Sequence record: SRR16203515_1153 | Strand: one strand, 5' to 3' | DNA: 44,669 nt | Translations under genes and position numbers: made by a program | Shown: in pieces, positions 4,610 to 19,143 of the stretch | How the letters are laid out: every line of letters starts with the position of its first letter | Position numbering within the stretch: the first letter of the stretch is position 1 | Notes under the pieces: model-generated | Told to the model about the DNA's origin: nothing | Seen by the model: only the letters and a program-made list of their open reading frames with translations | Database searches by the model: none

Positions 4610-5752
4610 TTAAAGCGTCCGCCGTAGGGCATCGATAACCGTATCAAGCTGTTTTTCTTCGATCGTGAGAGGGGGCAGCAGTCGAATAACCGTCGGGCCT
4701 GCTGGCAGCGCAATAATTCCAGTGTCCAGTAGCGTCTGCAGGAATGGCGTTGCTTTTTGTTTGAGCTCGATACCGATCATTAAACCAATTTGTCTGAGCT
4801 CCCTAACGGAATCCGGCAGTTTTTGGGTAAAACCCTCTTTAAAATAATCCCCGAGGTGAGATGCGCGATCTGCGAGCTTGTGCTGAACCATAAAATCAAT
4901 AGCGGCAGAACCTGCTGCGCATGCCAGAGGATTACCCCCAAATGTTGACCCGTGGACTCCCGGTCGAACGCTCACAGTCTCCGCGCACAGGACCGCGCCC
5001 ATTGGAACGCCGCCAGCAATGCCTTTTGCGAGGCACAATAAATCTGGCTCAACATCGTAGTGTTCGCAGGCGAAAAACCCACCGGTTCGACAAAAACCAG
5101 TTTGAACTTCATCGATTATGAGCAGGGCGCCTCGGTCGGTACAGATTCGACGAGCAGCGTCCAGGAAATCCCGGCTCGCGGGGCGTACGCCGCCCTCACC
5201 TTGAACAATTTCCAGCATCACTGCGGCTGTTGTTTCATCGACGGCCGCATCGAGTTTCTCGATGTTATTGAGCGGAATGAAAGATGCACCGGGAATTAAC
5301 GGTTCAAACTCGTCTCGATACTTGAACGTCGCACTCAAGGCGCCAAGGGTTCTACCATGAAATCCTCGCATCGCCGTAATCAGTCCGGACCGACCGGTGG
5401 TTGCACGCGCAAATTTAATCGCGGCCTCGACACTCTCGGTTCCGGAGTTACAAAGAAAGACGCGTTCCAGAGACTTGGGCGAAAGACGCACAAGCCTTTG
5501 CATAAGTTCCCCTCGTCGGTCGTTATGGAAAATACCGGGGCAGGTGAGCAGTGTTTCGGCTTGATCGGTGAGCGCTTTAATTACGGCAGGATTGCTGTGT
5601 CCGATATTGGCGACGCCAACACCCGCTGCGCAATCTATATAGGTTTTGCCATCGTCCGAGAAAAGCGATGCGCCTTCTCCACGAATGATATTAATGCCTC
5701 GCCGCGGATAGACTTCAAGCGCATAGCGGGATTCTAAAGACGGTTCGGTCAC
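4610..5752 (-). CDS. lysJ: [LysW]-aminoadipate semialdehyde transaminase (class III PLP aminotransferase, LysJ/ArgD family)
   Basis: NSGTESVEAAIK, FHGRT, DEVQTG, LAKGIAGG and HGSTFGGNPL. Last gene of the lysW operon; its GTG start overlaps the lysZ stop. Confidence 0.85.
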   Translation of the reverse strand: MTEPSLESRYALEVYPRRGINIIRGEGASLFSDDGKTYIDCAAGVGVANIGHSNPAVIKALTDQAETLLTCPGIFHNDRRGELMQRLVRLSPKSLERVFLCNSGTESVEAAIKFARATTGRSGLITAMRGFHGRTLGALSATFKYRDEFEPLIPGASFIPLNNIEKLDAAVDETTAAVMLEIVQGEGGVRPASRDFLDAARRICTDRGALLIIDEVQTGFCRTGGFFACEHYDVEPDLLCLAKGIAGGVPMGAVLCAETVSVRPGVHGSTFGGNPLACAAGSAAIDFMVQHKLADRASHLGDYFKEGFTQKLPDSVRELRQIGLMIGIELKQKATPFLQTLLDTGIIALPAGPTVIRLLPPLTIEEKQLDTVIDALRRTL

Positions 5753-6540
5753 TTGATTGTGGTCCCTTTTCCAGCTAACGCATCGAAGATAGGGTTTTCT
5801 GTTCGGCCATCGGCAATCACGACCTCTGCAGCGCCATCTTTAAGCAAACGGGTGAGGGCTAATAGCTTGCGTTTCATTCGGCCTTCAGCAGCCATCTCTC
5901 GACTGGCAAGATCGGAAACGGAAAGTGTGGGGCATAACGAGTTTTCATCGTCTTTATTGTCGAGGAAGCCCGGCGCTTCGATTAACTGGATTACTTTTTG
6001 TGCCCCTAGCGCTTTTTGCAAAACTGCGACAATATCGTCGTTTTCAGAGTTAATCGCGTAGCCTTGCTCATCAACAATTGGAATGCTGAGCACAGGCCGA
6101 TACCCTTGGCCGAGAAGCAACGTAAGCAGGTCTGCGTTCACCGATTCCGGCTTACCCGAAAAATCACGCTTGATGAGTGTTTTGCCGCCTTCTCTAACCT
6201 TGATGCCTTTATTGCGTTTGCCTTGTACCAAACGAGCATCAAGTCCGGTGAGGCCGATTGCGTTGATGCTGTTCTGCTGGCACAGCTCGACAAACCGTTT
6301 ATTCCGCAGTCCGCTGTATGCCATCATAATTAGATCAATCGCTTCTGCATCGGAATAAACGCTGCTGTAGCCAGAGACCGAAGTTAATTCGATCTTCTGA
6401 TGACCGGTTAATGCTGCGAGGCGGTCGCGCGCGGCATTCGCCCCGAGAACGACGATAAAAGGCTCCTTGATTGCGGCCAGATCAGCGACGACACCGTCGA
6501 GATTTATTCCGCTTCCGCCTCCAACTTTAATGATGTACAT
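5749..6540 (-). CDS. lysZ: [LysW]-aminoadipate/[LysW]-glutamate kinase
   Basis: Amino-acid kinase fold: IIKVGG, SVSGYSSVYSD, GLTGLD, basic loop GKRNKGIKVREGGK, GRMKRKL and GKGT. lysW operon context. Confidence 0.88.
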   Translation of the reverse strand: MYIIKVGGGSGINLDGVVADLAAIKEPFIVVLGANAARDRLAALTGHQKIELTSVSGYSSVYSDAEAIDLIMMAYSGLRNKRFVELCQQNSINAIGLTGLDARLVQGKRNKGIKVREGGKTLIKRDFSGKPESVNADLLTLLLGQGYRPVLSIPIVDEQGYAINSENDDIVAVLQKALGAQKVIQLIEAPGFLDNKDDENSLCPTLSVSDLASREMAAEGRMKRKLLALTRLLKDGAAEVVIADGRTENPIFDALAGKGTTIK

Positions 6541-6549
6541 AGCTGTTGG

Positions 6550-7188
6550 TCATAACTCGGTCACCGTTCGGTTTTCGATAGTTTGCCATTTTGCGTCTGG
6601 CAAGGGATAGGGTTCGGAACATACAATTTCAAATCGGTCGGTGGATGCTCGATGCATTTGAAAATAACCTTGATTTTCATTGTACTGAGTGGACAAAAGT
6701 GATTGCTGGGGTGTTGCGATAATCAGGTTCATTGCCCGTATATAACGGGTTCGTTTTTCAATCACGTCGACTGTTTTTTGGAGCCCGGGAATAGCGCCAA
6801 GATGCGAAAACCGGCTGGAATAGTTAAAAATCTTTTCAGCCCCGATGCGGCCCGATTCCCGAATTCGGACCCCCGTCAACTCCCCATTAAAAATAAACAC
6901 TCGATTTCCGTTGGTGAACGGCATGTTATTTTCAACCCGGATGCCTTCGTCCCGAAACGCACTGCGGGCATGAGCGAGAAAAAGGCTCGTATCGTTGAAC
7001 CGGTCTAGAACGTCCTGCCAGATGGGTGTAATACTGTGATGAAAACGCCATTGATTGTCGTCAAGCCAGGCGCAGCCCCAACCGTGTCCCTGATACTCGC
7101 TACTGTTCTCGCAGATAGCGGCAAATGCTTCAAGGTGCTGTGTCACCTGAACCGGTTTGGGCGCACGAAGCCATAATAGTCGACACAT
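6550..7188 (-). CDS. Class II glutamine amidotransferase-like Ntn hydrolase (YafJ/EgtC/Dug3-like), stand-alone
   Basis: N-terminal MCRLL (Cys2 nucleophile), GHGWG, LAHARSA, ENNMPF, FIFNG and CSEP. Separated by 9 bp from both neighbours. Confidence 0.85.
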   Translation of the reverse strand: MCRLLWLRAPKPVQVTQHLEAFAAICENSSEYQGHGWGCAWLDDNQWRFHHSITPIWQDVLDRFNDTSLFLAHARSAFRDEGIRVENNMPFTNGNRVFIFNGELTGVRIRESGRIGAEKIFNYSSRFSHLGAIPGLQKTVDVIEKRTRYIRAMNLIIATPQQSLLSTQYNENQGYFQMHRASTDRFEIVCSEPYPLPDAKWQTIENRTVTEL

Positions 7189-7197
7189 TTTGAATGG

Positions 7198-8223
7198 CTA
7201 GATAGGGTGAAGACCGGTAAAGGTGAGCCCGGTTGACTCGTTCAATCCATGCATGAGATTAAAACATTGGACGGCTTGGCCTGCCGCGCCTTTCATCAAG
7301 TTATCAATGGCGCTGATCACAACGAGACGGTTGGTGCCAGAATCAATCTCGAACCCGATATCACAAAAATTAGTACCGCTCAAAAGCTTCGGCTCCGGAA
7401 AACGATGAATCCCGCTTCGCTCTTTAACAATGCGAATAAAGGGCTCATTCGCATAGTCCTCCCGATAAATCCCCCAGATCTCTTTTTCCAGGTGGGATTC
7501 ATTCAAAAAGATATGGCAGGTTGCCAAAATACCGCGGACCATCTCGATAGATGTTGCCGAAAAGTACACCGGGAAATCGCCAAGGGATTGGCTGATCTCG
7601 GCAACATGACGATGGCGAGTCGGGCGATAAGAACGAACGGCTCCGCTTCTTTCGGGGTGATGACTACCCTCTGTTGCGGCGTTCCCGGCTTCGCTCGAGC
7701 CGGCCTTCACATCGATGACGACAGAGGAGATCAAGTTACGGTTCGCAAGCGGCGCGAGCGCTAATGTGCTGGCAGTCGCGTTACAGCCCGCGCACGCCAC
7801 ATGAGTCGCATCCTGAATAGCCGCGCGATTAATCTCCGGCACGCCATAAACAAATCGATCGAGAAGACCCGGATTAGGGTGCGGCTGCCCGTACCACTTG
7901 GCATAGGTATCAGGGTCCGATAGCCGAAAATCTGCACTTAAATCAATAATCCTCGATGCCAGCGCAGAGAAGTCGTCAAATCGTTCTGCTGTTTGTCCGT
8001 GGGGTAAGCATAAAAACAAAACATCACACGGCTGGAGCTCCGTTAGATTGCAAAATTTTAGCGAGCTGGCGCCACGAAGATTAGGGTGGGCCTTATGAAC
8101 CGCTTTACCTGCAAATCGCTCCGAGGTGACCTGTTTAACCTCGCACGACTCATGGAAGAGCAGCAGGCGCAAAAGTTCACCGCCTGTATATCCTGAACCG
8201 CCAACAATTGAGACATTTATCAC
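7198..8223 (-). CDS. lysY: [LysW]-aminoadipate-6-phosphate reductase (LysY/ArgC family)
   Basis: [27 protein letters not shown], catalytic AGCNATA, LysY-type [19 protein letters not shown] and [11 protein letters not shown]. Confidence 0.88.
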
Positions 8224-9053
8224 GGTCTGGACCCCAAAACATAGTCCACCACCTGCGCCGGAATATTGACTCCGGTGGTTTCGATGCTATTTCGAAACTC
8301 CATGGTGTAATTCACTTCGTTCACGCACAGTCCGTCATTTGTTTCAAAAAGATCCACTGCAAGAACGCCACCCCCAACCGCAGCAGCAGCTGCGAGGGAG
8401 ATTTCAGCGATATGGGCATCAACCTCACACCCGCTCGCGACAGCGCCTCGCGCTGTATTTGTGATCCAGTGCTCGGAGCTTCGATAAATGGCAGCGATAC
8501 ATTGATTTCCCACAACAAAACTTCGAATATCACGGCCCTTTTTTTCCACAAATTTTTGAATATAAAAGATGGAGTGGTGATAACTGCCTAAAACTGATTT
8601 ATGTTCCAGGATCGCCTCAGCTGATTCGCGGTCATTCACTTTCGAGAGTAATCGACCCCACGAACCAACCGCGGGTTTAAGCACGACTGGATAGCCAAGT
8701 TCTTCGATAGCAGCGAGGGCTGATTCCTCAGTAAACGCGACACGAATCGGTGGTTGTTTCACGCCCGCTTTTTTTAGCGCTACCGAGGTGAGTATCTTGT
8801 CGCCACAAATTGAGGCAACTTTAGCGGAGTTCACGCAGTGGACGCCTGCCGTCTCCAGCAGTTGAAGTCCATACAATGATCGGGAATGATTAATACTTCG
8901 CTCTAAAACAACATCAACGTTAGGGATGGGTTCAAGATCAAACACCAGTTTACGGTCGTCAATCATCTGAAGGTTAATCCCGCGAGCTTGGAATTCCTCA
9001 ATCAGAAGTTTTTCTTCTTTTCGGATTAAAGAATGGAGCAATCCGACCTTCAC
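8220..9053 (-). CDS. lysX: Alpha-aminoadipate--LysW ligase (RimK/LysX ATP-grasp)
   Basis: [36 protein letters not shown] and [12 protein letters not shown]. Start reassigned to GTG 9053, which overlaps the lysW TGA (GTGA). Confidence 0.92.
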
Positions 9054-9214
9054 TCGCCCCAATCCTCCTCAGTTTCTGGCGCTTCTGTCACCGTAGCCGG
9101 ATCAAGACCTGTGACCTCAAGTTCCGATCCACAATCAGTACATTCCAGTAGCTCGCCGATTACTGTACCTGCAGCAAATGAGATTTCAGCACCACAAACT
9201 GGGCATTCAGTCAT
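9050..9214 (-). CDS. lysW: LysW amino-group carrier protein (54 aa; missing from the ORF track)
   Basis: Manual translation gives [54 protein letters not shown]: two CxxC pairs, acidic, with the hallmark C-terminal EDWGE. TAAGGA RBS upstream. Confidence 0.97.
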
Positions 9215-9289
9215 ATTCTTGTTTCCTTAATCATGTTGGAAAGGGCGGGTTAGCATGCCCTCGGGAATTGATTCCCTTAAAATTAGAAT

Positions 9290-9511
9290 TGTAATTTAAC
9301 TTACATCTCGAAACTAAAAAATAATTTTCAACTAAATCCATATATTTGATCGTGAAAAATAAACCGGGGGTCTCAGTTTGATGCTAAAGGCCTCGCGGCT
9401 TAAAAATATATTGCGCCTACTTTCAATAGGTTGATGAAACTTGACTACTCAGAAGAGATATTCCCGCGCTACCGCCTATTTTTTCTTGGATTTAGTTGTA
9501 ATTAACTTATA
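9290..9511. promoter_or_regulatory. AT-rich divergent control region with candidate TetR operators
   Basis: Near-palindrome TGTAATTTAACTTACA (9290-9305) and related TGTAATTAACTTATA (9497-9511) between lysW and the first tetR. Confidence 0.5.
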
Positions 9512-9549
9512 CTGAAACGCTAATATCCGATAAATTATTTAAGGCATTT

Positions 9550-10176
9550 ATGGCTTCAAAAAAAGGATCGGCACGAGCTCCGACCCGCAGACCTGGTATC
9601 GACCGATACGACAAGGTTTTGGGAGCGGCTGAGGAAATAATTTTAGAGAACGAGTCACTAGACGGCCTAACTCTCCAGGCGATCGCTGCGAAAGCAAAGG
9701 TACCAAGAGTCTCACTATATTATTTTTTCCCGTCGATCGATGCCGTGATTGAGGCACTTTACCAGCGTATTCTTACCCGACTGATAAGTGAACTTTCTCA
9801 GTCATTCACGAAACCCGATAAAGATTGGAAAAAGGTCATGACCCGACTCATGACCGAAGTCCGTAATCACTATCGCAAAAACACGTTAACTACCGTTTTG
9901 GCACTCACACCTCCCTCACCCAAAATGATCAACGAAGCCCATATTGTTTATGGAGAGGCTGTTGCAAGCATGTTAGTGGCTATATCGAGCGTACCCGCGT
10001 CCAAGAATTTGACAATGGGATGCGAAATAGCGGCCGAGATTGGTACAACGATTTTTCGAAAATCTTATCTAGAAAACGGAACAATTACTGATTCTTATTT
10101 GGCAGAAGCGCTCAACGCGGTTATCGCCTATCTTGACACGGTTATCAGCCCTAAGAAAGTCGCTAAAGTAAAATAA
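9550..10176 (+). CDS. TetR/AcrR family transcriptional regulator
   Basis: N-terminal HTH LTLQAIAAKAKVPRVSLYYFFPS; about 200 aa, helical. Confidence 0.9.
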   Translation: MASKKGSARAPTRRPGIDRYDKVLGAAEEIILENESLDGLTLQAIAAKAKVPRVSLYYFFPSIDAVIEALYQRILTRLISELSQSFTKPDKDWKKVMTRLMTEVRNHYRKNTLTTVLALTPPSPKMINEAHIVYGEAVASMLVAISSVPASKNLTMGCEIAAEIGTTIFRKSYLENGTITDSYLAEALNAVIAYLDTVISPKKVAKVK

Positions 10177-10260: not shown

Positions 10261-10866
10261 ATGATGCAAGAAGAGAGAGTTATTCGAGCCGGGGTTAAGA
10301 GGCCCGGAATTGACAGATACAACGCTATCATTCGGGCGGCAGAAGCAATCATCACTGAAGAGCGCTCAATCGCGGAGTTATCCATTCAATCTGTTGCCCG
10401 CAGAGCTCGTATTCCCAGAGTCTCCGTTTACTATTTCTTTCCCTCGGTCAACTCACTAGTAGAAACACTTTATAAGCGAGGTGTGGAGCGGATGGCGACC
10501 GAGTTCTTAGGTGAGCCTCAATCTGAAACCACACAACTTTGGCCTAATTTTGTGGAGTCCCTGATGGATCAGACCCGGTCTCATTACGAAAAAAATCCGG
10601 TTACGATGATTCTGGCCTTTTCTCCCGCATCACTGACACTCCTTAATCAAGCTCATCAGCACTATGGAAAAGAGCTAGCACATACTTTGGCCCATTTCAC
10701 AGGTGATCAGGTTTCCGGGCGGTTGATTCGCTCCTGTGAAATTGCATCCGAGATCGCGGACTGCGTCTGGCGAAAATCGTTTATGGAACATCAGATTATT
10801 TTGCCTTCTTTTCATCAACAGGCCAAAAGTGCCGTTCTGGCTTATCTTAAGTCTGTTATCGGGTAA
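10261..10866 (+). CDS. TetR/AcrR family transcriptional regulator, paralog of the upstream gene
   Basis: HTH LSIQSVARRARIPRVSVYYFFPS. Shares RPGIDRY, CEIAxEI and RKS motifs with 9550..10176. Confidence 0.9.
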   Translation: MMQEERVIRAGVKRPGIDRYNAIIRAAEAIITEERSIAELSIQSVARRARIPRVSVYYFFPSVNSLVETLYKRGVERMATEFLGEPQSETTQLWPNFVESLMDQTRSHYEKNPVTMILAFSPASLTLLNQAHQHYGKELAHTLAHFTGDQVSGRLIRSCEIASEIADCVWRKSFMEHQIILPSFHQQAKSAVLAYLKSVIG

Positions 10867-10958: not shown

Positions 10959-12431
10959 TTATCGGGGGAAATTAACTAACGAAAATTTGGTGTCGGGGTT
11001 AGGGTATTCCTTCAAACTTTCAACATATTGCCCCACGATCTTGAGGTACGGGGCGATCACCCAGGCTTCGGTCCCGATCTGGTTCATTTGCTCTCTCGGA
11101 TCACGAGCGATGTTAAAAATTGCCGGATATCCCATTCCTTCCATGCGATAACCATAGATCCCACCTGCTGACGGGTTGCCAGCAGACGTGATCATTTGCT
11201 TGGGATACATTCGCCAATTTCGCCAGCGAACGGCGGCGACTTCACCATCGATAAATGCAATGTAGTCTTCTCTCGCAGATTTATCAGTTTCTCCTTTGAA
11301 AAAAGGGAGCTGATTGCGGCCATCAATCGGCCGGTCATCGGGGAGACTATCGGATAATAGGGCGGCAAAAGTAGGAAGAAAGTCGTGAATGGCGACCATT
11401 TCATTACTTTTCCGGACCGGGATCTCTCCGGGCCACCGAATCATCCCCGGCACCCGCAATGATCCCTCTGTTGCATCGCCGATGTCGCCATTGAAAGGCC
11501 CAGGAGAGCTCCCCAGATAATCATGGTTAATTCCGTTACGATTCACCGGGCCGTTGTCAGAGAGGTAGACCACTATTGTGTTGTCCCGAATGCCAGCGTC
11601 ATCGATTGCGGATAGCACTTGACCTACACGATGATCATGCTCCATCAACATGTCTCCATAGCGCCCGGCGCTCGACAAGCCACGAAACTCTTCGGACGCC
11701 CCTTCGGGATAATGAACGTGGGACCAGCCAACATATAAAAAGAAAGGATTAGCCTGGTTGGCGTGGTCTTTTATGTAATTCCTGGCCGCATCAGCAATAT
11801 CGCCCTCTACTTTTCGACGATACTCTAGATCGTATTTCCGAACCTTTTGCAGGTTACCGCTGCCGTTGGATTCCCAAATATAAGGTCGACTTTTGCCAAT
11901 CACCCCCTCATCGCGGATGCCGCTTCGGCGCATTGATTCAGGGTAAAGCGTGCCGTCTGTTGTTTCGAGAATCCCGACCTTATACGTATCAAACCCCTGA
12001 TTAATGGGCAGACTTTGTTCTTCCTGACCGAGATGCCATTTGCCGGTCATCCCGGTTTGGTAGCCGTGCCTTTTAAAGAGTTCAGCTATCGTAAATTCTT
12101 CATCGGCCAGTGTCAGCGGTGTGCCAGCGACGATGATGCTGTTTAATCCCGAACGGACACTATACCGTCCGGTCATTAACCCCGCCCGCGAAGGTGTACA
12201 CCCGGGTTCAACAAAAAATTGTGTCAGCATCAATCCTTCAGACGCGAGTCCATCGATGTTCGGGGTAGGCATCCCCCGAACATCACCACCGCCATAGGCC
12301 CCGAGGTCGCCATAACCAAGGTTGTCAGACAACATTAGCACCACGTTTGGGCGATCAGACGCCCATCCGACCGATAGATAAAAAGTTAAAAGAAGTAGAC
12401 CAAAGATCTGCTTAACACAAGACGACGTCAT
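10959..12431 (-). CDS. Arylsulfatase (Cys-type formylglycine sulfatase), exported
   Basis: RPNVVLMLSDNLGYGD, CTPSRAGLMTGR, GKWHLG and SDNG. ATG 12431 has a GGAGG RBS and a signal peptide. Confidence 0.93.
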   Translation of the reverse strand: MTSSCVKQIFGLLLLTFYLSVGWASDRPNVVLMLSDNLGYGDLGAYGGGDVRGMPTPNIDGLASEGLMLTQFFVEPGCTPSRAGLMTGRYSVRSGLNSIIVAGTPLTLADEEFTIAELFKRHGYQTGMTGKWHLGQEEQSLPINQGFDTYKVGILETTDGTLYPESMRRSGIRDEGVIGKSRPYIWESNGSGNLQKVRKYDLEYRRKVEGDIADAARNYIKDHANQANPFFLYVGWSHVHYPEGASEEFRGLSSAGRYGDMLMEHDHRVGQVLSAIDDAGIRDNTIVVYLSDNGPVNRNGINHDYLGSSPGPFNGDIGDATEGSLRVPGMIRWPGEIPVRKSNEMVAIHDFLPTFAALLSDSLPDDRPIDGRNQLPFFKGETDKSAREDYIAFIDGEVAAVRWRNWRMYPKQMITSAGNPSAGGIYGYRMEGMGYPAIFNIARDPREQMNQIGTEAWVIAPYLKIVGQYVESLKEYPNPDTKFSLVNFPR

Positions 12432-12577
12432 GATTTCCTCCAAAATGTGAGCCTGAAGTTTTGGCAAGTTTAAAAGTTGACAGATGTTCAATAATAACGA
12501 AGATTGTTTTCAAGCGCTACAAGTTCGCCCAGACAATCCGACTGAGGGGAAAAGAACATTGAATCCGCGATACCACG

Positions 12578-12590
12578 TATAATCCGCGCG
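12578..12590 (+). promoter_or_regulatory. Candidate -10 box plus GC-rich discriminator for tRNA-Cys
   Basis: TATAAT followed by CCGCGCG about 50 bp before the tRNA. No well-spaced -35 seen. Confidence 0.4.
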
Positions 12591-12635
12591 AAGTTATTTT
12601 TCTACGTGTTATTTGACTAAACCGAAAGCTTCAGT

Positions 12636-12709
12636 GGCTGGGTGGCAGAGTGGTTATGCAGCGGCCTGCAAAGCCGTGGACGCCGGTTCGATTCCGACCC
12701 CAGCCTCCA
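12636..12709 (+). tRNA. tRNA-Cys(GCA)
   Basis: GGCTGGG/CCCAGCC acceptor stem, anticodon arm GCGGC-CTGCAAA-GCCGT, GGTTCGATTCC T arm, U discriminator and encoded CCA; 74 nt. Confidence 0.97.
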
Positions 12710-12749
12710 ATTTCGCCCCTGACAAAGCCGTTTCCGCCGGTGCCTGAAA

Positions 12750-15125
12750 TTGAGTGGACTTATCTCAATTAAACCCCTGACCAATACAGTCTCCACCCGG
12801 CGTCGTCGAAGCTTTGGGCGACGCCTATCGAAACGTGTTCAGATCCAAAGCTGTATAAAGACAGGAATACGGAGGAGTGTTGGACTCTCTCTAGCCCTTT
12901 TTTTAACAACGAATTTCTTTGCCCAGGCCGAATCGGAGTTTATGGGGTCGAAAAGTTGTCAAGGGTGCCACGAACAAGCCTTTGAGAATTGGCGAAATTC
13001 TCATCATGATCTAGCAATGCAGCCGGCATCTGAGGATACAGTGCTTGGCGATTTTAATGGCGTGGAGTTTGACTACCACGGATCGATAACGCGGTTCTCG
13101 AAAGACGATTCCGGATTTTGGGTGACCACTCAAGGCTCGGATGGAATACTCGAAAAATTTCCGGTGGAATATGTTTTTGGCGTCTACCCGCTACAACAGT
13201 ACCTCATTCCCCTCGAAGGCGGCCGGCTTCAGGCACTTACAATTGCGTGGGATGCGCGGCCTCAAACTGAAGGAGGGCAACGCTGGTATCACCTTTATCC
13301 CGATGAATTCATTAGTCATTCCGACCCGCTTCATTGGACCGGTCCGTATCATAACTGGAACGCCCGATGTGCCGAATGCCACAGTACCAATGTTCGCAAG
13401 AACTATAACCTCGAGACCGATAGTTATGACACGAGTTATAGCGAGATAGACGTTGGTTGCGAAGCATGCCATAGCCCAGGTCGCGCCCACATCGAAGCTG
13501 TCGAGCAGGGTAGAGTGGGTGAAGTCGAGCACGGTGGATTTGAAGTCAGCCTGAAAGGAAATATGTTTTGGGAGAGGTCCCCCGGTGCCAGTGTTGCAAG
13601 CAGTTCTAAGAAGGCCAGTCCAATGCAGATCGAGAACTGTGGACGGTGCCATAGCCGCCGGAGAACCTTAGGCGACTATCATTACGGTCATTCACTACTC
13701 GATACACATTCACTGGCGATGCTCTCCCCGCCACTTTATCACCCGGACGGACAGATTCTCGACGAAGTATATGTGTACGGCTCTTTCATCCAAAGCAAGA
13801 TGTATGATGCTGGTGTTGTTTGCACTAATTGTCATGAGCCGCATAGCAACCAATTGAGAGCGGAAGGCAATGGCTTGTGCGGCCAATGTCACGATGCGGA
13901 TCGGTTTGATACGCCAGATCATCATCGGCATTTGAGTCCAAGTGAGGGTGCTCAATGCGTTAACTGCCATATGCCTGAGCAAGTTTATATGGGGGTTGAT
14001 AAGCGTCGGGATCACAGCATGCGTATTCCCAGGCCCGACATCAGCATCCAAATTGGCAGCCCCAACGCGTGCATACAGTGTCATACCGGCCAATCCAATG
14101 AATGGGCGGTTAACGCGCTGTCGCAATGGGGTGTCGACAACACGGATACTGAAGCGCATATCGGAGTTATCTTTGACAATGCACGGAACGGTGACCCTAC
14201 GGCGCTTTCAAAGATTCACGATTTAGCTCTCGACCCTAACAATAACGCAATCTGGAGAGGTTCAGCGGCAGAAATGCTGGGTCAGCACAGGACCGAAGAA
14301 GCAGCGCCGGTTGCGAAAGAACTGTTAAATTCTTCAAACCCGCTTCTAAGAGTCAGTGCCGTGAGATTGGTTGAAAATCTCCCTCTCGTTCAGACATTTC
14401 GAATTCTTCGACCCCATTTAAATGAAACAAACGATTCAGTCATCATGGAGATCGCTCGGGTCCTGTCGGAAGTCCCACTGGCGCAACTCCCTCCTTCAGA
14501 CGCATCCGCACTTACGAGCATTTTCAAGCGTTACTTAAATATCCAGTCGGATCATTTAGATCTACCTTCGGTTCAGGTTCAGTTGGGAAATTTTTATTCC
14601 AAACGAGGCTATCCCGAGAGAGCAGAATCAGCGTATCGCGCAGCGATCAGAATCAATCCACAAGTGACAGGTGCCTACATCAATCTTGCCGATCTAAAAC
14701 GTTCTGAAGGTGATGATGTGGCGGCTGGTAAGATCTTACTTGATGCCGTTAGGCGTTTTCCGACCGACGCCGATATTCTCCACGCTCTGGGGTTATGGCA
14801 AATAAGAAGAAAGAACTACGATGCCGCGCTTGAGTTTTTGAAATCTGCGTCTGCCTATGCGTCCGATAACATTCAGTATCGCTATATCTATGCAGTCGCG
14901 CTTCATGACCTAGGCCAAGCTGATCGATCAATAAAAGAGCTAGAAGCGGCACTCAATCTTTCAGCTTACTCATCTAACATCCTTCTTGCGCTGGTCACTT
15001 ATTCACTTGAGTTGGACCGGTACCAACAGGCTAAGAAATATTCAGAGCGGCTGGTTTCATTGGATCCCCTAAATAATAGTTATCTCCGGCTTTATCAGGA
15101 TGTAAGCGCTATAAGTGACAACTAG
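12750..15125 (+). CDS. Multiheme (8 CxxCH) cytochrome c with C-terminal HEAT/TPR repeats; start uncertain
   Basis: CQGCH, CAECH, CEACH, CGRCH, CTNCH, CGQCH, CVNCH and CIQCH; signal-like segment ending AQA; TPR-like helices (AESAYRAAIRINP, AYINLADL, YRYIYAVAL). Confidence 0.88.
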   Translation: MSGLISIKPLTNTVSTRRRRSFGRRLSKRVQIQSCIKTGIRRSVGLSLALFLTTNFFAQAESEFMGSKSCQGCHEQAFENWRNSHHDLAMQPASEDTVLGDFNGVEFDYHGSITRFSKDDSGFWVTTQGSDGILEKFPVEYVFGVYPLQQYLIPLEGGRLQALTIAWDARPQTEGGQRWYHLYPDEFISHSDPLHWTGPYHNWNARCAECHSTNVRKNYNLETDSYDTSYSEIDVGCEACHSPGRAHIEAVEQGRVGEVEHGGFEVSLKGNMFWERSPGASVASSSKKASPMQIENCGRCHSRRRTLGDYHYGHSLLDTHSLAMLSPPLYHPDGQILDEVYVYGSFIQSKMYDAGVVCTNCHEPHSNQLRAEGNGLCGQCHDADRFDTPDHHRHLSPSEGAQCVNCHMPEQVYMGVDKRRDHSMRIPRPDISIQIGSPNACIQCHTGQSNEWAVNALSQWGVDNTDTEAHIGVIFDNARNGDPTALSKIHDLALDPNNNAIWRGSAAEMLGQHRTEEAAPVAKELLNSSNPLLRVSAVRLVENLPLVQTFRILRPHLNETNDSVIMEIARVLSEVPLAQLPPSDASALTSIFKRYLNIQSDHLDLPSVQVQLGNFYSKRGYPERAESAYRAAIRINPQVTGAYINLADLKRSEGDDVAAGKILLDAVRRFPTDADILHALGLWQIRRKNYDAALEFLKSASAYASDNIQYRYIYAVALHDLGQADRSIKELEAALNLSAYSSNILLALVTYSLELDRYQQAKKYSERLVSLDPLNNSYLRLYQDVSAISDN

Positions 15126-15502
15126 GGAGTCCGAGCGTCAAACACCTCTTTTGCCGCCAGAAGCGCGTTGGTTGCCGCTGGAAATCCGCAGTAATCGATC
15201 ATTTGGGTAATCGTGGCAATAATTTGATCCTGAGTTGCGCCTCGGTTCAGTGCGGCGTCAATATGGACTTTGAGCTGCGGAATGGCATACCCGAGCACCG
15301 TGAGTGCGCTCACGGTGATTAACTCCTGAGTCACCTGATCCAGCACCTTGTCTGTTTCCTTATATATATCGCCGTAGGCGAATTCAACATTCACCCGCGC
15401 GAAGAATGGCGAGATTGCTTCCAGCTTCGCGATATATTTCTCAGCATCTTCGCCAAGATGCTCTTTTAATTCTTCCATTCCGGCATCGTAACGTTTATTC
15501 AT
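15122..15502 (-). CDS. Carboxymuconolactone decarboxylase (CMD/AhpD-like) family protein
   Basis: VEFAYGDIY, ELITVSALTVLG, QLKVHIDAALNRG and YCGFPAATNAL. Confidence 0.88.
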   Translation of the reverse strand: MNKRYDAGMEELKEHLGEDAEKYIAKLEAISPFFARVNVEFAYGDIYKETDKVLDQVTQELITVSALTVLGYAIPQLKVHIDAALNRGATQDQIIATITQMIDYCGFPAATNALLAAKEVFDARTP

Positions 15503-15790
15503 ATCTGCTGTTCCCTGGGATTCCGTTAGATAAGGTTTGAGTGATTGTACCGCTCAGATCGAGTCAGGCATTAGCAGCAGGACTCTGGAAGCTCGTTCGG
15601 GAGCCCCGACCAAAGGGTGATCTATGGTTTTTGGCCGACTAGAGCCTAACTGCAGCGGGATGTTTCCTGGGGTCACTTGGCCCATGGTTAAGATCCAAAG
15701 TGAAATCTCGACCATCACTTTTCGTATCCGGATTGTAAGGAAAACGATAGACTAATTATCAAGTATTTATTCAACCTGATAGTCTCATCG

Positions 15791-16369
15791 ATGAATCACT
15801 TCATGCCAGTCAAGCAGTTTCCTATAAGGGGGTTAGCGTTATTGCTTATGTTTTTTTTAGTCTTCGCCGCTCATGGCCAAGACAACACCGAAAACATTTA
15901 TTTTGACCTACCTCCTGGTTTTGAAAAGGGCTTTGAGGAGAGCGATGACGCTTTTTTTATTCAGGAATGGGTGCCGAAGGGCGAATCAGTTAACGACTGG
16001 AGCGAGATGTTGACGCTCACTATTCAGAATATGCCCAATATCGATCCGGTTGAGTTTTTTAATCATATGGCAGATGGTTGGGAGGAGTCGTGTCCAGAGT
16101 ATGGCGGGATGTTGTTACATGAAGGGCTTGAAAACAATTATCCCGTAGCCCTCTGGTTCTTAAAATGCCCGAAAAATCCAATGACCAATAAGCCGGAATT
16201 CACATACATAAAGGGCATTGCTGGCAATGATAACTTTTATACGGTCCAGTTGGCTTATGCGCTGCGTTCTGACGAGATCACTGACTTGACGATAAATCGA
16301 TCAATGGCTTTTTTGAGGCAGGTTATCGTTTGTGACGACCGCAGGCCTCAGGCGCACGCTTGCGACTGA
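15791..16369 (+). CDS. Exported hypothetical protein
   Basis: Signal peptide (LALLLMFFLVFAAHG), EWVPKGESVNDWSEMLT and four Cys; isolated full-length ORF. Confidence 0.75.
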   Translation: MNHFMPVKQFPIRGLALLLMFFLVFAAHGQDNTENIYFDLPPGFEKGFEESDDAFFIQEWVPKGESVNDWSEMLTLTIQNMPNIDPVEFFNHMADGWEESCPEYGGMLLHEGLENNYPVALWFLKCPKNPMTNKPEFTYIKGIAGNDNFYTVQLAYALRSDEITDLTINRSMAFLRQVIVCDDRRPQAHACD

Positions 16370-16397
16370 GGTGACTTACTGTCTACTCTCGGTTTCG

Positions 16398-17477
16398 TTA
16401 TTCCACTTTCGAAATCAGAGGTGCGAGCCGATACCCCTCGGCTCGAACACGCTCAGAGGGGATGTAGTGGCGAACCACAAAATTAAAGACCCCCGTTTCG
16501 TTTGTAATTGGCACATTGTTGGCGGCATTCTCCCCACAACCGAAGCGCACGGTGTAAGTTCCATCCGTATTAGGGGAGGCAATATCTGAACTCATGTGCG
16601 CAACATCATTAAACATGAATCCCTTTTTGTCGTAGACGGTAAAAGACCAGAAAGCGCCATTGTTCGGATCTTCAAAGGTTGCTTCATAGCATCCCTTCGC
16701 AGGGTAGTCCGGTGAGCTCTCGTAAAGGTTATCCCTCAGTTGCGCGCCTCCCCAGCCTACCGCTGCTCCTACGGTGTATTTGTCAAAGGTATATAGCCCT
16801 CTTGAATCATCAGTAGGGGCGGTAAACATTCCTTGGGCTACATTACCTGGATCCGCGGTCACCAACTCTACTAACTTTTCCCGAAGGGAACGCTCAACAG
16901 CCTCAAAGGCATCTTTATCGACGGGCTCGGCCAAGAAAGGTTCGGCACTTGCCGCATCGATCACCATGGCATCCTGCAGCGCATTCGCTTCTTCCTGGCT
17001 CAGGGTGCTGTCCAGTCGGACAATCAAATAGAGGTGGCTTCCAAAGTGGGTTGCTAACTGGTAGGTGCCGCTCCCATAGGACATGGGCTGAATACGATGA
17101 TCCTCGGTTACCGGCTGCACGGAGATATATTTACCCTCCGGTACCGGTGGCAGCGTGATTGTCGCGCCTTTGGATATGTCGACCACCACAAAACTGTAAT
17201 AAGTATCCCTGTTCATACGCACAATCGGCTGATCGTCGGTGGGCGTTAATTTACGAGTATGAGCGAAAACGTTTACTTTGGCTCGTTTCTGCGCAAGCAA
17301 TAATTGGCGGGCCGTTTCGATTGTGGGGTAAGTCTCAGGCGTCGTTACCACGCCCCCTGACCTGAAAAATTTATCAACAGATGAGACAGGCTCGGCCCAA
17401 GCTGCGGAACCCACTAAAAGGTTACCGACCAATAGGGTGACGGATAAAAGCGGAAGCTTATTTTTTTGGATTTTCAT
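16398..17477 (-). CDS. DUF1254/DUF1214 family exported protein
   Basis: IVRMNRDTYYS, AFWSFTVYD, NTDGTYTVRFG and NFVVRHYIP. Signal peptide from ATG 17477. Confidence 0.85.
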   Translation of the reverse strand: MKIQKNKLPLLSVTLLVGNLLVGSAAWAEPVSSVDKFFRSGGVVTTPETYPTIETARQLLLAQKRAKVNVFAHTRKLTPTDDQPIVRMNRDTYYSFVVVDISKGATITLPPVPEGKYISVQPVTEDHRIQPMSYGSGTYQLATHFGSHLYLIVRLDSTLSQEEANALQDAMVIDAASAEPFLAEPVDKDAFEAVERSLREKLVELVTADPGNVAQGMFTAPTDDSRGLYTFDKYTVGAAVGWGGAQLRDNLYESSPDYPAKGCYEATFEDPNNGAFWSFTVYDKKGFMFNDVAHMSSDIASPNTDGTYTVRFGCGENAANNVPITNETGVFNFVVRHYIPSERVRAEGYRLAPLISKVE

Positions 17478-17826
17478 GTTATTCGAATTCAATAGTGATT
17501 TAGACCGTAATCTCTCCCAAAATACGGTAGAGATTATGCACCATCTGGACGCATGTTCGTCAATGATCCGTCTTGCCACCAATCCTCTAATCACTTTGAC
17601 GCCAGTCCTGATCAGGAGTCGAACGTCTTTTCCTAAAAAACAACCTCTGGATTTTTTACTCCTGATTAATCCAGAGGCTGGTCTGCTTGTATCACTCTAA
17701 GTCTTATCGTATTAAAATGCGCAGACCATGCGACTGCTTTGACAGTCAATTGTCACATTCAAGGCTACCGCTTGAATAAGAATGATGCAAAGAAGGCGTG
17801 CAAAAGGGCGTACAAAACCCTTTACT

Positions 17827-17835
17827 TGCTAGAAT
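17827..17835 (+). promoter_or_regulatory. Candidate extended -10 promoter for tRNA-Leu
   Basis: TGCTAGAAT (TGn-TAGAAT) 25 bp before the tRNA. Confidence 0.4.
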
Positions 17836-17860
17836 ATTAGTAATCTAGAGTCGTTTTACC

Positions 17861-17947
17861 GCCCGGGTGGCGAAACTGGTAGACGCAAGGGACTTAAAAT
17901 CCCTCGAGGGAAACCTCGTGCCGGTTCGAGTCCGGCCCCGGGCACCA
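17861..17947 (+). tRNA. tRNA-Leu(TAA)
   Basis: GCCCGGG/CCCGGGC acceptor stem, AGGGA-CTTAAAA-TCCCT anticodon arm, long variable arm, GGTTCGAGTCC T arm and ACCA end; 87 nt. Confidence 0.97.
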
Positions 17948-17976
17948 TTAGGTCGAACGTGGACCGGTCCTCAGTT

Positions 17977-19143
17977 ATGCATCGTAAAAATCCTAAAAAA
18001 TTATTGCGATACGGTTTATTTGCAACCGCGCAATTAACACTCGCAATTTTGGTCTGGAGTGGCCTGAATATCGCGGTGGCTGATTCAGAGATGTTCTCCC
18101 GATTTTTAACTGAACCCGAATGGGCGGTGTCGACCACTGAGGATCCGACTGGCTTAGCTTCGCAACCCTTTGTTCAGCGATTCGAACTCCGCACCGGTCA
18201 TTGTCAAGCAAAGCCTCCCTATAACGACTGCAAATCAGGGACCGAACGGGCTGAACTTGCGCAGGCTGCGGATGGCAGCAGTCGGCAGGGTGGTCCGCAG
18301 TGGTATCGATGGCAGTTCTATATTCCCGAGGAGTTCGAAAGCAGTTATCCGGCGAAGAATCGTTTTGGACAATTTATTGATAGTCGTACCCAGAAGGCGG
18401 CGTGGGTTTTGGAGTTGGGCCGAACAGGCGTGCTTTGGCTAGGCCGGCTGGTTGCAGGTGACAGTGAGTATTTCTCCCTTTTAACCAAACAACAGTTGCT
18501 TGGGCAATGGCAAGAACTCATTGTTCAAGCAACTTGGTCAAAGACTAACGGGGTTTTAAATATGTGGATTAATGGCGAACAGATTGTCCGCTATCAAGGC
18601 CAAACCTGCGATAAATGTGATGTTTTTTTTAGCTACGGAATCGCACGAATCGGAGTTGAAAAGTTTGCGAAGCGTTATCCTGAGAAACCATTACCTGATC
18701 AAATTGTATTTTATAGTCCTGTCGAAATTAGCCTTGGAGATCCCGGTTGGGTCTCGACTCCGGATCCTGTTGATGATGTCCCGGCGCGGGAGGTTTCGCC
18801 AGAATCCAGCGACTTGAACGGCGAGACGCTCACGGATACCGAAACCCAAACCAACAATCTACCAACCGCTGCGAGCCTTTCTGAGGAAGCACCCGGGAAT
18901 AGAGAGATAGAAGATGGCAGTATTGAAGCCTCAACACCAGTTAATGACCAAGACGCCCCTGGAGCTGAGGTGTCCGATACAGATTTATCCTCTCCCGAAG
19001 GGAAAGTCTATGAAGACGTTGTTATTATCATAGAAGAGGCGGAAATATCGACCTCAACTAATTACTCTTCGACCGAATCTCCTGAACAATCAGAACCAAA
19101 AAAGATTGTTGATCCTTATGAACGCGCCAATGACGGACGCTAG
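17977..19143 (+). CDS. Polysaccharide lyase/heparin lyase I-like domain protein with a long acidic disordered tail
   Basis: N-terminal hydrophobic segment; RFELRTGHC..DC..ERAEL..WYRWQFYIP..FGQF..MWING..YGI pattern; C-terminal ~130 aa rich in D/E/S/T/P. Confidence 0.65.
   Translation: MHRKNPKKLLRYGLFATAQLTLAILVWSGLNIAVADSEMFSRFLTEPEWAVSTTEDPTGLASQPFVQRFELRTGHCQAKPPYNDCKSGTERAELAQAADGSSRQGGPQWYRWQFYIPEEFESSYPAKNRFGQFIDSRTQKAAWVLELGRTGVLWLGRLVAGDSEYFSLLTKQQLLGQWQELIVQATWSKTNGVLNMWINGEQIVRYQGQTCDKCDVFFSYGIARIGVEKFAKRYPEKPLPDQIVFYSPVEISLGDPGWVSTPDPVDDVPAREVSPESSDLNGETLTDTETQTNNLPTAASLSEEAPGNREIEDGSIEASTPVNDQDAPGAEVSDTDLSSPEGKVYEDVVIIIEEAEISTSTNYSSTESPEQSEPKKIVDPYERANDGR

Follow-up and report, generated by a model that had tools for sequence, protein, structure and literature searches.

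The DNA stretch SRR16203515_1153 (44,669 nucleotides, called the window below) carries on its minus strand an operon for amino-acid biosynthesis on the carrier protein LysW, in which a gene for a 212-amino-acid (212-aa) protein of the N-terminal nucleophile (Ntn) hydrolase type lies between lysY and lysZ. The LysW or amino-group carrier protein (AmCP) pathway is a standard example of carrier-protein amino-acid biosynthesis. To our knowledge, LysK is the only release enzyme known for this pathway. An earlier reading made from the letters alone (the sequence-only reading) had claimed that the 212-aa protein replaces LysK with an unrelated fold, and the claim was followed up here by computational analysis. 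The operon and its upstream region comprise the following features.

9215-9549, minus strand: AT-rich intergenic region, presumed promoter or leader of lysW (sequence reading and Rfam scan)
9050-9214, minus strand: lysW, 54-aa amino-group carrier protein, zinc ribbon with an EEDWGE end (Glu terminus); TIGR01206 65.2 bits (cut-off 53.2), PF21344
8220-9062, minus strand: lysX, ATP-grasp ligase loading the amino acid on LysW; TIGR02144 327 bits (cut-off 275.6)
7198-8223, minus strand: lysY, LysW-aminoadipyl-phosphate reductase of the ArgC family; TIGR01850 396 bits (cut-off 233.6)
6550-7188, minus strand: Ntn gene, 212 aa starting MCRLL, class-II amidotransferase fold with Cys2 as nucleophile; proposed LysW gamma-glutamyl amidase
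5749-6540, minus strand: lysZ, [LysW]-aminoadipate kinase; NF010659 235.7 bits (cut-off 223)
4610-5752, minus strand: lysJ, LysW-aminoadipate-semialdehyde aminotransferase of the ArgD/LysJ family; TIGR00707 426.4 bits (cut-off 410.05)

The order lysW-lysX-lysY-[212-aa Cys2 protein]-lysZ-lysJ, with overlaps or 9-nt gaps, had been read from the letters and was borne out by the minus-strand open reading frames (ORFs). lysW and lysX overlap by 13 nt, lysX/lysY and lysZ/lysJ overlap by 4 nt each, and a gap of 9 nt lies on each side of the Ntn gene. The five-gene LysW (AmCP) set (LysW, LysX, LysZ, LysY and LysJ) is contiguous and scores over the NCBIfam cut-offs, with LysJ recognised at the family level; its best single model was the LysJ model NF042418 at 456.4 bits, under the cut-off of 700 (NCBIfam). 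The window had also been described as lacking an M20 gene (LysK/ArgE), and none was detected in it at E ≤ 1e-3 by tblastn with 12 M20 queries, including four LysK proteins from LysK-type clusters.

Within the class-II amidotransferase/Ntn superfamily, the 212-aa protein belongs to a divergent subfamily and is neither EgtC nor LysK. It scored 22.1 bits against Pfam GATase_4 (PF13230), under the gathering cut-off of 23, and 40.7 bits against the EgtC equivalog TIGR03442, far under the cut-off of 218.65; the Ntn members of two divergent clusters, L105 and L106, scored 31.9 and 45.3 bits against the same model. No M20 match was obtained in Pfam or NCBIfam, which places the protein outside the LysK family (TIGR01902, NF003367). 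The family is tight and comprises 3029 database proteins (E ≤ 1e-3), most of them without a name or with the label 'glutamine amidotransferase', which fall into 316 clusters at 50% identity; nearly all are 205-230 aa long and begin at the Cys. Two members, P0167 (477 aa) and P0235 (356 aa), are far longer than the others, match the query only over residues 1-126 or 1-127, and may be fusions or miscalled genes.

The four-layer alpha-beta-beta-alpha Ntn fold was found in an AlphaFold2 model built on 54 diverse members (pLDDT 97.3, pTM 0.92) and in the Foldseek search. EgtC chains took Foldseek ranks 1-10 (TM up to 0.82, E about 3e-12, 16-18% identity); 3mdn, PurF, 1te5 and GlmS came next, and the probability was 1.00 to EgtC, PurF and GlmS. 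The kinship with stand-alone Ntn hydrolases of the EgtC type that had been proposed for the protein is supported, EgtC being the nearest solved structure. By profile, the closest solved proteins were 3mdn (E = 1.5e-10), EgtC (5e-7) and 1te5 (E = 0.009).

Among the 54 diverse members, the residues conserved were Cys2 (53/54), which directly follows the initiator Met as MCRLL in the window, Arg75 (54/54), Asn101 (53/54), Gly102 (52/54) and Gly116 (53/54), and position 119 was Lys or Arg in all 54. Asn101-Gly102 and Arg75 align with the 'NG' and 'H-x-R' of 3mdn and GlmS; in class-II amidotransferases, we take the Asn-Gly to be the oxyanion pair and the Arg to be the holder of the substrate carboxylate. 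Alignment to 3mdn, a solved class-II domain protein, also placed MPF (residues 89-91) and FNG (100-102) opposite its HPF and HNG, so that both altered motifs named in the sequence-only reading are present. Gly116 stands opposite the Asp of the (S/T)-D-(S/T)-E motif in alignments to 3mdn and to the GlmS N-domain of the close relative G001, the latter with an hhalign probability of 0.14. Loss of this Asp would fit a substrate whose glutamyl alpha-amine belongs to a peptide chain.

The window Ntn protein was modelled with its own LysW by ESMFold2. Three runs gave an ipSAE interface score of 0.81 (0.80-0.82), compared with 0.00 for the best of three controls, with a contact agreement of at least 94% and a partner pLDDT of at least 87; of 78 solved complexes, 51 reached the mark for this score, as did 2 of 108 mismatched pairs. 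The predicted interface includes LysW residues 45-54, together with 16, 18-22 and 33, and residues 1-2, 75-78, 89, 100-110, 115-117, 119-120 and some helix residues of the Ntn protein, and in the model it coincides with the catalytic pocket and the conserved basic residues. A check suggested earlier, for the EDWGE end near Cys2 and a basic docking patch, came out in favour of the proposal: the model sets the LysW tail against Cys2, Arg75, Asn101-Gly102 and Lys/Arg119. We know of no solved complex of the class-II amidotransferase/Ntn fold with LysW.

The presence of lysK elsewhere in the genome was examined in G001 and 44 other operon-bearing genomes, and LysK was called by a match over the TIGR01902 cut-off of 163.1. 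G001 is an Arenicellales gammaproteobacterium assembled as a single 2.7-Mb contig, which has 26% of 31-mers in common with the window and an Ntn copy that is 95% identical. The 45 different genomes were drawn from G001, G002-G011, G212-G216, 17 Ntn-positive Gemmatimonadota and 14 Ntn-positive Acidobacteriota. A true lysK outside the operon would have spoken against the replacement; none of the 45 genomes had a match over the cut-off (best score 115.9), and 4 of 14 control genomes did. Eight M20 matches were present in G001 and none was near LysK (best TIGR01902 score 79.7; NF003367 54.3, cut-off 363). By NCBIfam, they include a CpsA-like amidohydrolase, two PRK07522-type 'acetylornithine deacetylases', two ArgE/DapE-family deacylases, an allantoate amidohydrolase and a proteobacterial DapE split into two ORFs.

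The distribution of the Ntn gene and LysK was then compared with LysX (TIGR02144) as the marker of the LysW system. In the Gemmatimonadota, LysX was over the cut-off in 19 of 201 evenly sampled genomes; 17 of these had the Ntn gene adjoining lysX, and the remaining two (G050 and G104) were the only two with LysK over the cut-off. In the Acidobacteriota, a strong LysX was found in 29 of 251 sampled genomes, and the 28 taken further were divided into 14 Ntn-only and 14 LysK-only genomes (G368 was left out after the LysX step; G068 and G368 appear only in the sample denominators). Over both phyla, the 47 LysX-positive genomes thus comprised 31 Ntn-only and 16 LysK-only genomes, with none carrying both and none carrying neither (Fisher p = 6.7e-13, uncorrected for relatedness). 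The expectation that this subfamily occurs in lysW clusters only when lysK is absent held across these genomes, and homologous clusters carrying both genes, which would have counted against the idea, were not encountered among the 47.

At least 469 Ntn loci were detected in species-representative genomes by a pattern search built from a closer alignment, which misses divergent members such as L105 and L106, and the synteny counts refer to the best 80 of these loci. The 80 loci come from Arenicellales, Acidiferrobacteraceae, metagenome-assembled genomes (MAGs) labelled Thioglobus, Woeseiaceae, Gemmatimonadota, Vicinamibacterales, Calditrichota and MAGs labelled Bacteroidetes. The Ntn gene lay beside LysW-pathway genes in all 80 loci, across several phyla. 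lysY was directly upstream in 76 (three others begin at a contig end, and in L054 the Ntn gene follows lysX), lysZ was directly downstream in 69 (another gene in 10, a contig end in one), and all five partner genes lay inside the stretch examined in 52. All-against-all clustering of the flanking ORFs of the 80 loci gave no other conserved flanking gene. An M20 gene was present in three of the 80 loci, in each case encoding a CpsA-type amidohydrolase and lying on the opposite strand at a distance of about 5 kb.

The LysK-type clusters L101-L104 are ordered lysW-X-Y-Z-J-lysK, and most Ntn-type clusters are ordered W-X-Y-Ntn-Z-J. In L105 and L106, the order is W-X-Y-[homocitrate-synthase-like]-Z-J-Ntn, and the Ntn gene occupies the slot of LysK after lysJ. 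The additional gene between lysY and lysZ (L105 4332-5423, L106 4495-5619) scored 280 and 251 bits against TIGR02146 (cut-off 413.55) and ties both clusters to lysine synthesis through alpha-aminoadipate.

Several departures from the common arrangement were observed. Ten gammaproteobacterial loci (L051, L054, L056, L057, L058, L062, L066, L069, L073 and L075) do not have lysZ-lysJ after the Ntn gene; L054 also misses lysY between lysX and the Ntn gene, and the carriers of these ten loci are mostly Gln-ended. In the Acidobacteriota clusters L097, L098, L134-L138 and L140, and in L078, lysW lies 1.1-1.4 kb from lysX (4 kb in L134), which indicates at least one inserted gene between carrier and ligase. 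At G143:C1:2302856-2303560 and G200:C18:33761-34474, the Ntn match falls into two parts, residues 1-43/45 and 44-200/210, that lie about 60-100 nt apart, owing to either a frameshift or an insertion behind the first strand. The Acidobacteriota genomes G360 and G361 contain one or two distant Ntn paralogues outside the cluster (E 1e-11 to 1e-20, frames of about 260-270 aa), which are presumably YafJ-like proteins of other function. Ntn matches inside open frames of 548-562 aa (G296, G442 and G320) were considered as LysY-Ntn fusions; because lysY and Ntn are matched in different reading frames there, the fusion was rejected in favour of long open frames of high-GC DNA.

The window LysW ends in EEDWGE, and its C-terminal tail is conserved in the LysW alignment. 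In the first alignment, EEDWGQ stood in place of EEDWGE in 8 of 26 carriers from Ntn-type operons. A census of the terminus was made over 122 loci, 21 of which had no recognisable lysW, mostly through contig truncation. LysW was Glu-ended in 51 and Gln-ended in 34 of 85 Ntn-type clusters, whereas all 16 carriers of LysK-type clusters were Glu-ended (Fisher p = 0.001 for Gln-ended LysW). The terminus changed at least ten times on the LysX+LysY tree, at least five of these changes being forced by well-supported branches, and all lie within the Ntn type. LysX has to acylate the gamma-carboxylate of the terminal residue, and in a terminal Gln exactly this group is amidated; such a carrier would therefore need a glutaminase-type enzyme first. 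The tolerance of a Gln end only in Ntn operons thus provides independent evidence for an enzyme that acts on the LysW-terminal gamma-amide.

The tree was built with FastTree from concatenated LysX+LysY of 95 clusters. One Ntn-type clade (support 99) contained 79 operons of Gammaproteobacteria, Gemmatimonadota, Acidobacteriota and Calditrichota, and L105 and L106 were placed, with weak support, among the LysK-type clusters. The LysK/Ntn state changed twice on the tree, one change being forced by well-supported branches. The 47 genomes are accordingly not independent trials: the complementarity goes back to one or two replacements, after which the operon spread across phyla. What carries weight is that many unrelated genomes have taken up the operon and that in none has a LysK come with it. 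In L076, from a record labelled Candidatus Woesearchaeota archaeon, LysX+LysY fall inside the bacterial Ntn-type clade and 5.5 kb separate lysW from lysX; the contig may be bacterial and wrongly binned, or the operon may have been transferred into an archaeon.

These results favour the 212-aa protein as the enzyme that releases lysine from LysW in place of LysK and that also deamidates Gln-ended LysW, with a probability of about 0.8. In function it most probably resembles LysK, and in chemistry EgtC. From the fold, residue conservation, synteny, LysK-complementary distribution, restriction of Gln-ended LysW and predicted complex, all computed here, we infer the substrate and every chemical step as follows. 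Removal of Met1 would free the N-terminal Cys, which would attack the gamma-carbonyl of the LysW C-terminal Glu, isopeptide-linked to the alpha-amine of the finished lysine. Asn101-Gly102 would form the oxyanion hole, and Arg75 would grip the free alpha-carboxylate of the C-terminal Glu. Gly116, at the place where relatives that use free glutamine carry an Asp for the substrate alpha-amine, would leave room for the peptide chain of LysW, and Lys/Arg119 with neighbouring basic residues would grip the acidic LysW tail. Lysine would then depart, and hydrolysis of the LysW thioester would regenerate LysW-Glu. With ammonia as the leaving group, the same chemistry could convert Gln-ended LysW into the active Glu form. 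The release step would be metal-independent, in contrast to that of the metal-dependent LysK. In its fuller form, to which we incline by a small margin over even odds, the proposal describes a dual-purpose LysW C-terminal gamma-glutamyl amidase, which would combine metal-free lysine release with activation of a Gln-ended 'pro-carrier' that LysX could not use undeamidated.

The restriction of Gln-ended LysW to Ntn-type operons would equally be expected of an enzyme that only matures the carrier, with a promiscuous ArgE/DapE-family M20 protein encoded elsewhere freeing lysine. ArgE/DapE paralogues occur in all genomes examined, and T. thermophilus LysK is reported to be an ArgE homologue with promiscuous activity (PMC12998189). 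We nevertheless judge a maturation-only role improbable. The gene is kept in all of the 51 of 85 Ntn-type operons, including that of the window, whose LysW is already Glu-ended and needs no maturation. In a single comparison of the window with L018, both with Glu-ended LysW, the dN/dS ratio of the Ntn gene was 0.10, alongside 0.11 for lysZ, 0.07 for lysJ, 0.06 for lysX and 0.05 for lysY; purifying selection where maturation is not needed argues against maturation as the only role. Moreover, lysK stays inside LysK-type operons and never appears in Ntn-type clusters, and no M20 type is found in a conserved position common to the Ntn-operon genomes. An editing enzyme that strips misloaded amino acids such as glutamate, or dead-end adducts, from LysW while normal release proceeds otherwise would agree just as well with the complex model, in which the LysW tail occupies the active site, an arrangement that fits hydrolysis of any LysW gamma-amide. 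A measurable side activity of LysX on glutamate is also reported in the same source (PMC12998189). Editing would still require a separate release enzyme and would explain neither the absence of LysK exactly where the Ntn gene is present nor the Ntn gene in the LysK slot of L105 and L106, and we regard it as more doubtful still. The protein has the fold and the catalytic residues of class-II glutaminases, and relatives carry the database label 'glutamine amidotransferase', both of which would suit an EgtC-like glutaminase of free glutamine or a small-molecule gamma-glutamyl hydrolase that supplies the pathway with ammonia or glutamate and does not act on LysW. Amination in this pathway is carried out by LysJ, a pyridoxal-phosphate aminotransferase, so no ammonia donor is needed; the Asp of (S/T)-D-(S/T)-E aligns to an invariant Gly, no synthase partner is present, and the LysW complex model reached 0.81 against 0.00 for the controls. 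Such an enzyme would also leave the LysK complementarity and Gln-ended LysW without explanation, and it is the least credible of the three.

Several points count against release by the 212-aa protein. Absence of LysK means that no match exceeded a curated cut-off, and many of the genomes examined are incomplete MAGs; one of the ArgE/DapE-family M20 paralogues present in every genome could release lysine. The complementarity with LysK stems from one or two evolutionary events only, and the Ntn-LysW complex expresses the confidence of a single-sequence model, not a measurement. The equivalence of Gly116 to the Asp depends on two weak alignments, and the role that we assume for this Asp in PurF and GlmS, binding of the alpha-amine of free glutamine, was sought in a review of GlmS inhibitors and not found there. 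The lineage of the window also has the diaminopimelate (DAP) route and no clear homocitrate synthase, and the proposal does not account for the aminoadipate source or for the role of the operon there. On balance, replacement of LysK by an unrelated fold, the central claim of the sequence-only reading, is supported by the absence of LysK, the complementarity, the complex model and EgtC as the nearest structure.

The 212-aa protein can be compared with several known systems. EgtC (gamma-glutamyl-hercynylcysteine sulfoxide amidohydrolase of the ergothioneine pathway; PDB 4zfj, 4zfk, 4zfl) is likewise stand-alone, of similar size and equipped with a Cys2 nucleophile, and it cleaves the same type of bond as is proposed here, between an amine and the gamma-carboxyl of a glutamyl group. 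It differs in its low identity and in the TIGR03442 score given above, in that the proposed substrate of the 212-aa protein is the C-terminal residue of a protein with a peptide-bonded alpha-amine, in the position of the gene between lysY and lysZ instead of in an egtA-E cluster, and in Gly116 at the motif Asp. LysK ([LysW]-lysine/ornithine hydrolase; M20, ArgE/DapE family; TIGR01902, NF003367) has the reaction proposed here and the slot taken by the Ntn gene in L105/L106, but it is a metal-dependent M20 enzyme, unrelated in fold and chemistry to a cysteine Ntn hydrolase, and its operons had Gln-ended LysW in 0 of 16 cases. The glutaminase domains of PurF and GlmS/GFAT have the fold, the N-terminal Cys, the H-x-R Arg (Arg75) and the Asn-Gly pair (Asn101-Gly102) in common with the 212-aa protein, which lacks a synthase domain, carries Gly116 for the motif Asp, and has Met/Gln and Phe for the His of HPF and HNG. 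The uncharacterised YafJ-like GATase_4 proteins 3mdn (Ruegeria pomeroyi) and 1te5 (P. aeruginosa), closest by profile, are single-domain with Cys2 but keep the STDSE-type Asp and are not known from a LysW setting. Yeast Dug3 and PuuD-type amidases likewise hydrolyse gamma-glutamyl amides with a cysteine nucleophile, PuuD having the class-I fold.

LysX specificity was used to judge the product. A five-residue motif defined on T. thermophilus LysX is reported as F-I-T-NS for aminoadipate, I-Y-V-GF for glutamate and Y-I-T-NA for both (PMC12998189). The window LysX reads F-I-T-NS (F182, I192, T203, N258 and S259) in an ungapped alignment to T. thermophilus LysX (3vpd/1uc8), and the same motif occurred in 79 of 81 Ntn-type and 13 of 14 LysK-type clusters, which makes lysine the likelier product than ornithine, as judged from these residues. 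A lysine riboswitch upstream of lysW, sought as a pointer to the product, was not found in the window or in seven loci (Rfam). G001 encodes separate canonical ArgB, ArgC and ArgJ, together with LysA and DapE; these rule out the operon as the sole arginine or lysine route and make it an additional module. No homocitrate synthase over the TIGR02146 cut-off was found in five genomes, and the two HMGL-family genes of G001/G002 considered for this role are LeuA (856 bits) and a CimA-like synthase. The lysY orthologue of G001 is interrupted (one TAA and two TGA in the matches; L017 8965-9988, G001:C1:1343165-1344182), lysY in the window is intact, and dapE of G001 is split into two overlapping ORFs (L006 1306-2443); the broken lysY and dapE are either assembly indel errors or real pseudogenes.

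No published description of an Ntn hydrolase in the LysW pathway was found in the full-text literature, with subscription journals and supplementary files outside the scope of the search; a GapMind preprint of 2026 mentions LysW only for LysZ. If the proposal is true, the apparent LysK gap of a well-studied pathway would close, and lysine synthesis through alpha-aminoadipate would have an undescribed second version that is widespread, occurring in at least 469 species genomes. Annotation pipelines that seek LysK would call LysW lysine synthesis incomplete in hundreds of species, including Arenicellales and other marine Gammaproteobacteria, Gemmatimonadota, Acidobacteriota and Calditrichota. 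The replacement would be a clean non-orthologous displacement of a metal enzyme by a cysteine Ntn hydrolase, and a function would be assigned to an unnamed family of about 3000 proteins labelled 'glutamine amidotransferase' or 'hypothetical'. Among amino-group carrier proteins, Gln-ended LysW would be the first to be synthesised as a latent amide, which would show that a carrier can be encoded in an inactive form, and the 212-aa protein would be the first Ntn hydrolase with the C-terminal residue of a carrier protein as substrate.

The flanks of the operon are unrelated to it and encode LemA, DUF2207, a TetR regulator, a sulfatase and a multihaem cytochrome/TPR protein. Divergently upstream of lysW lie two paralogous genes for regulator-like proteins of about 200 aa (9550-10176 and 10261-10866, plus strand); the former has a TetR_N match and the latter no Pfam match. 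They may regulate the operon, and flank-ORF clustering did not find the pair kept beside the operon in other loci. An Rfam scan of the whole window at gathering thresholds gave no riboswitch and only two tRNA genes, both away from the operon (12636-12706 and 17861-17944). The region 10959-19143 contains genes for the sulfatase, the multihaem cytochrome c/TPR protein (791 aa), a DUF1254/DUF1214 protein and a polysaccharide lyase, a gene set typical of a marine polysaccharide-degrading heterotroph.

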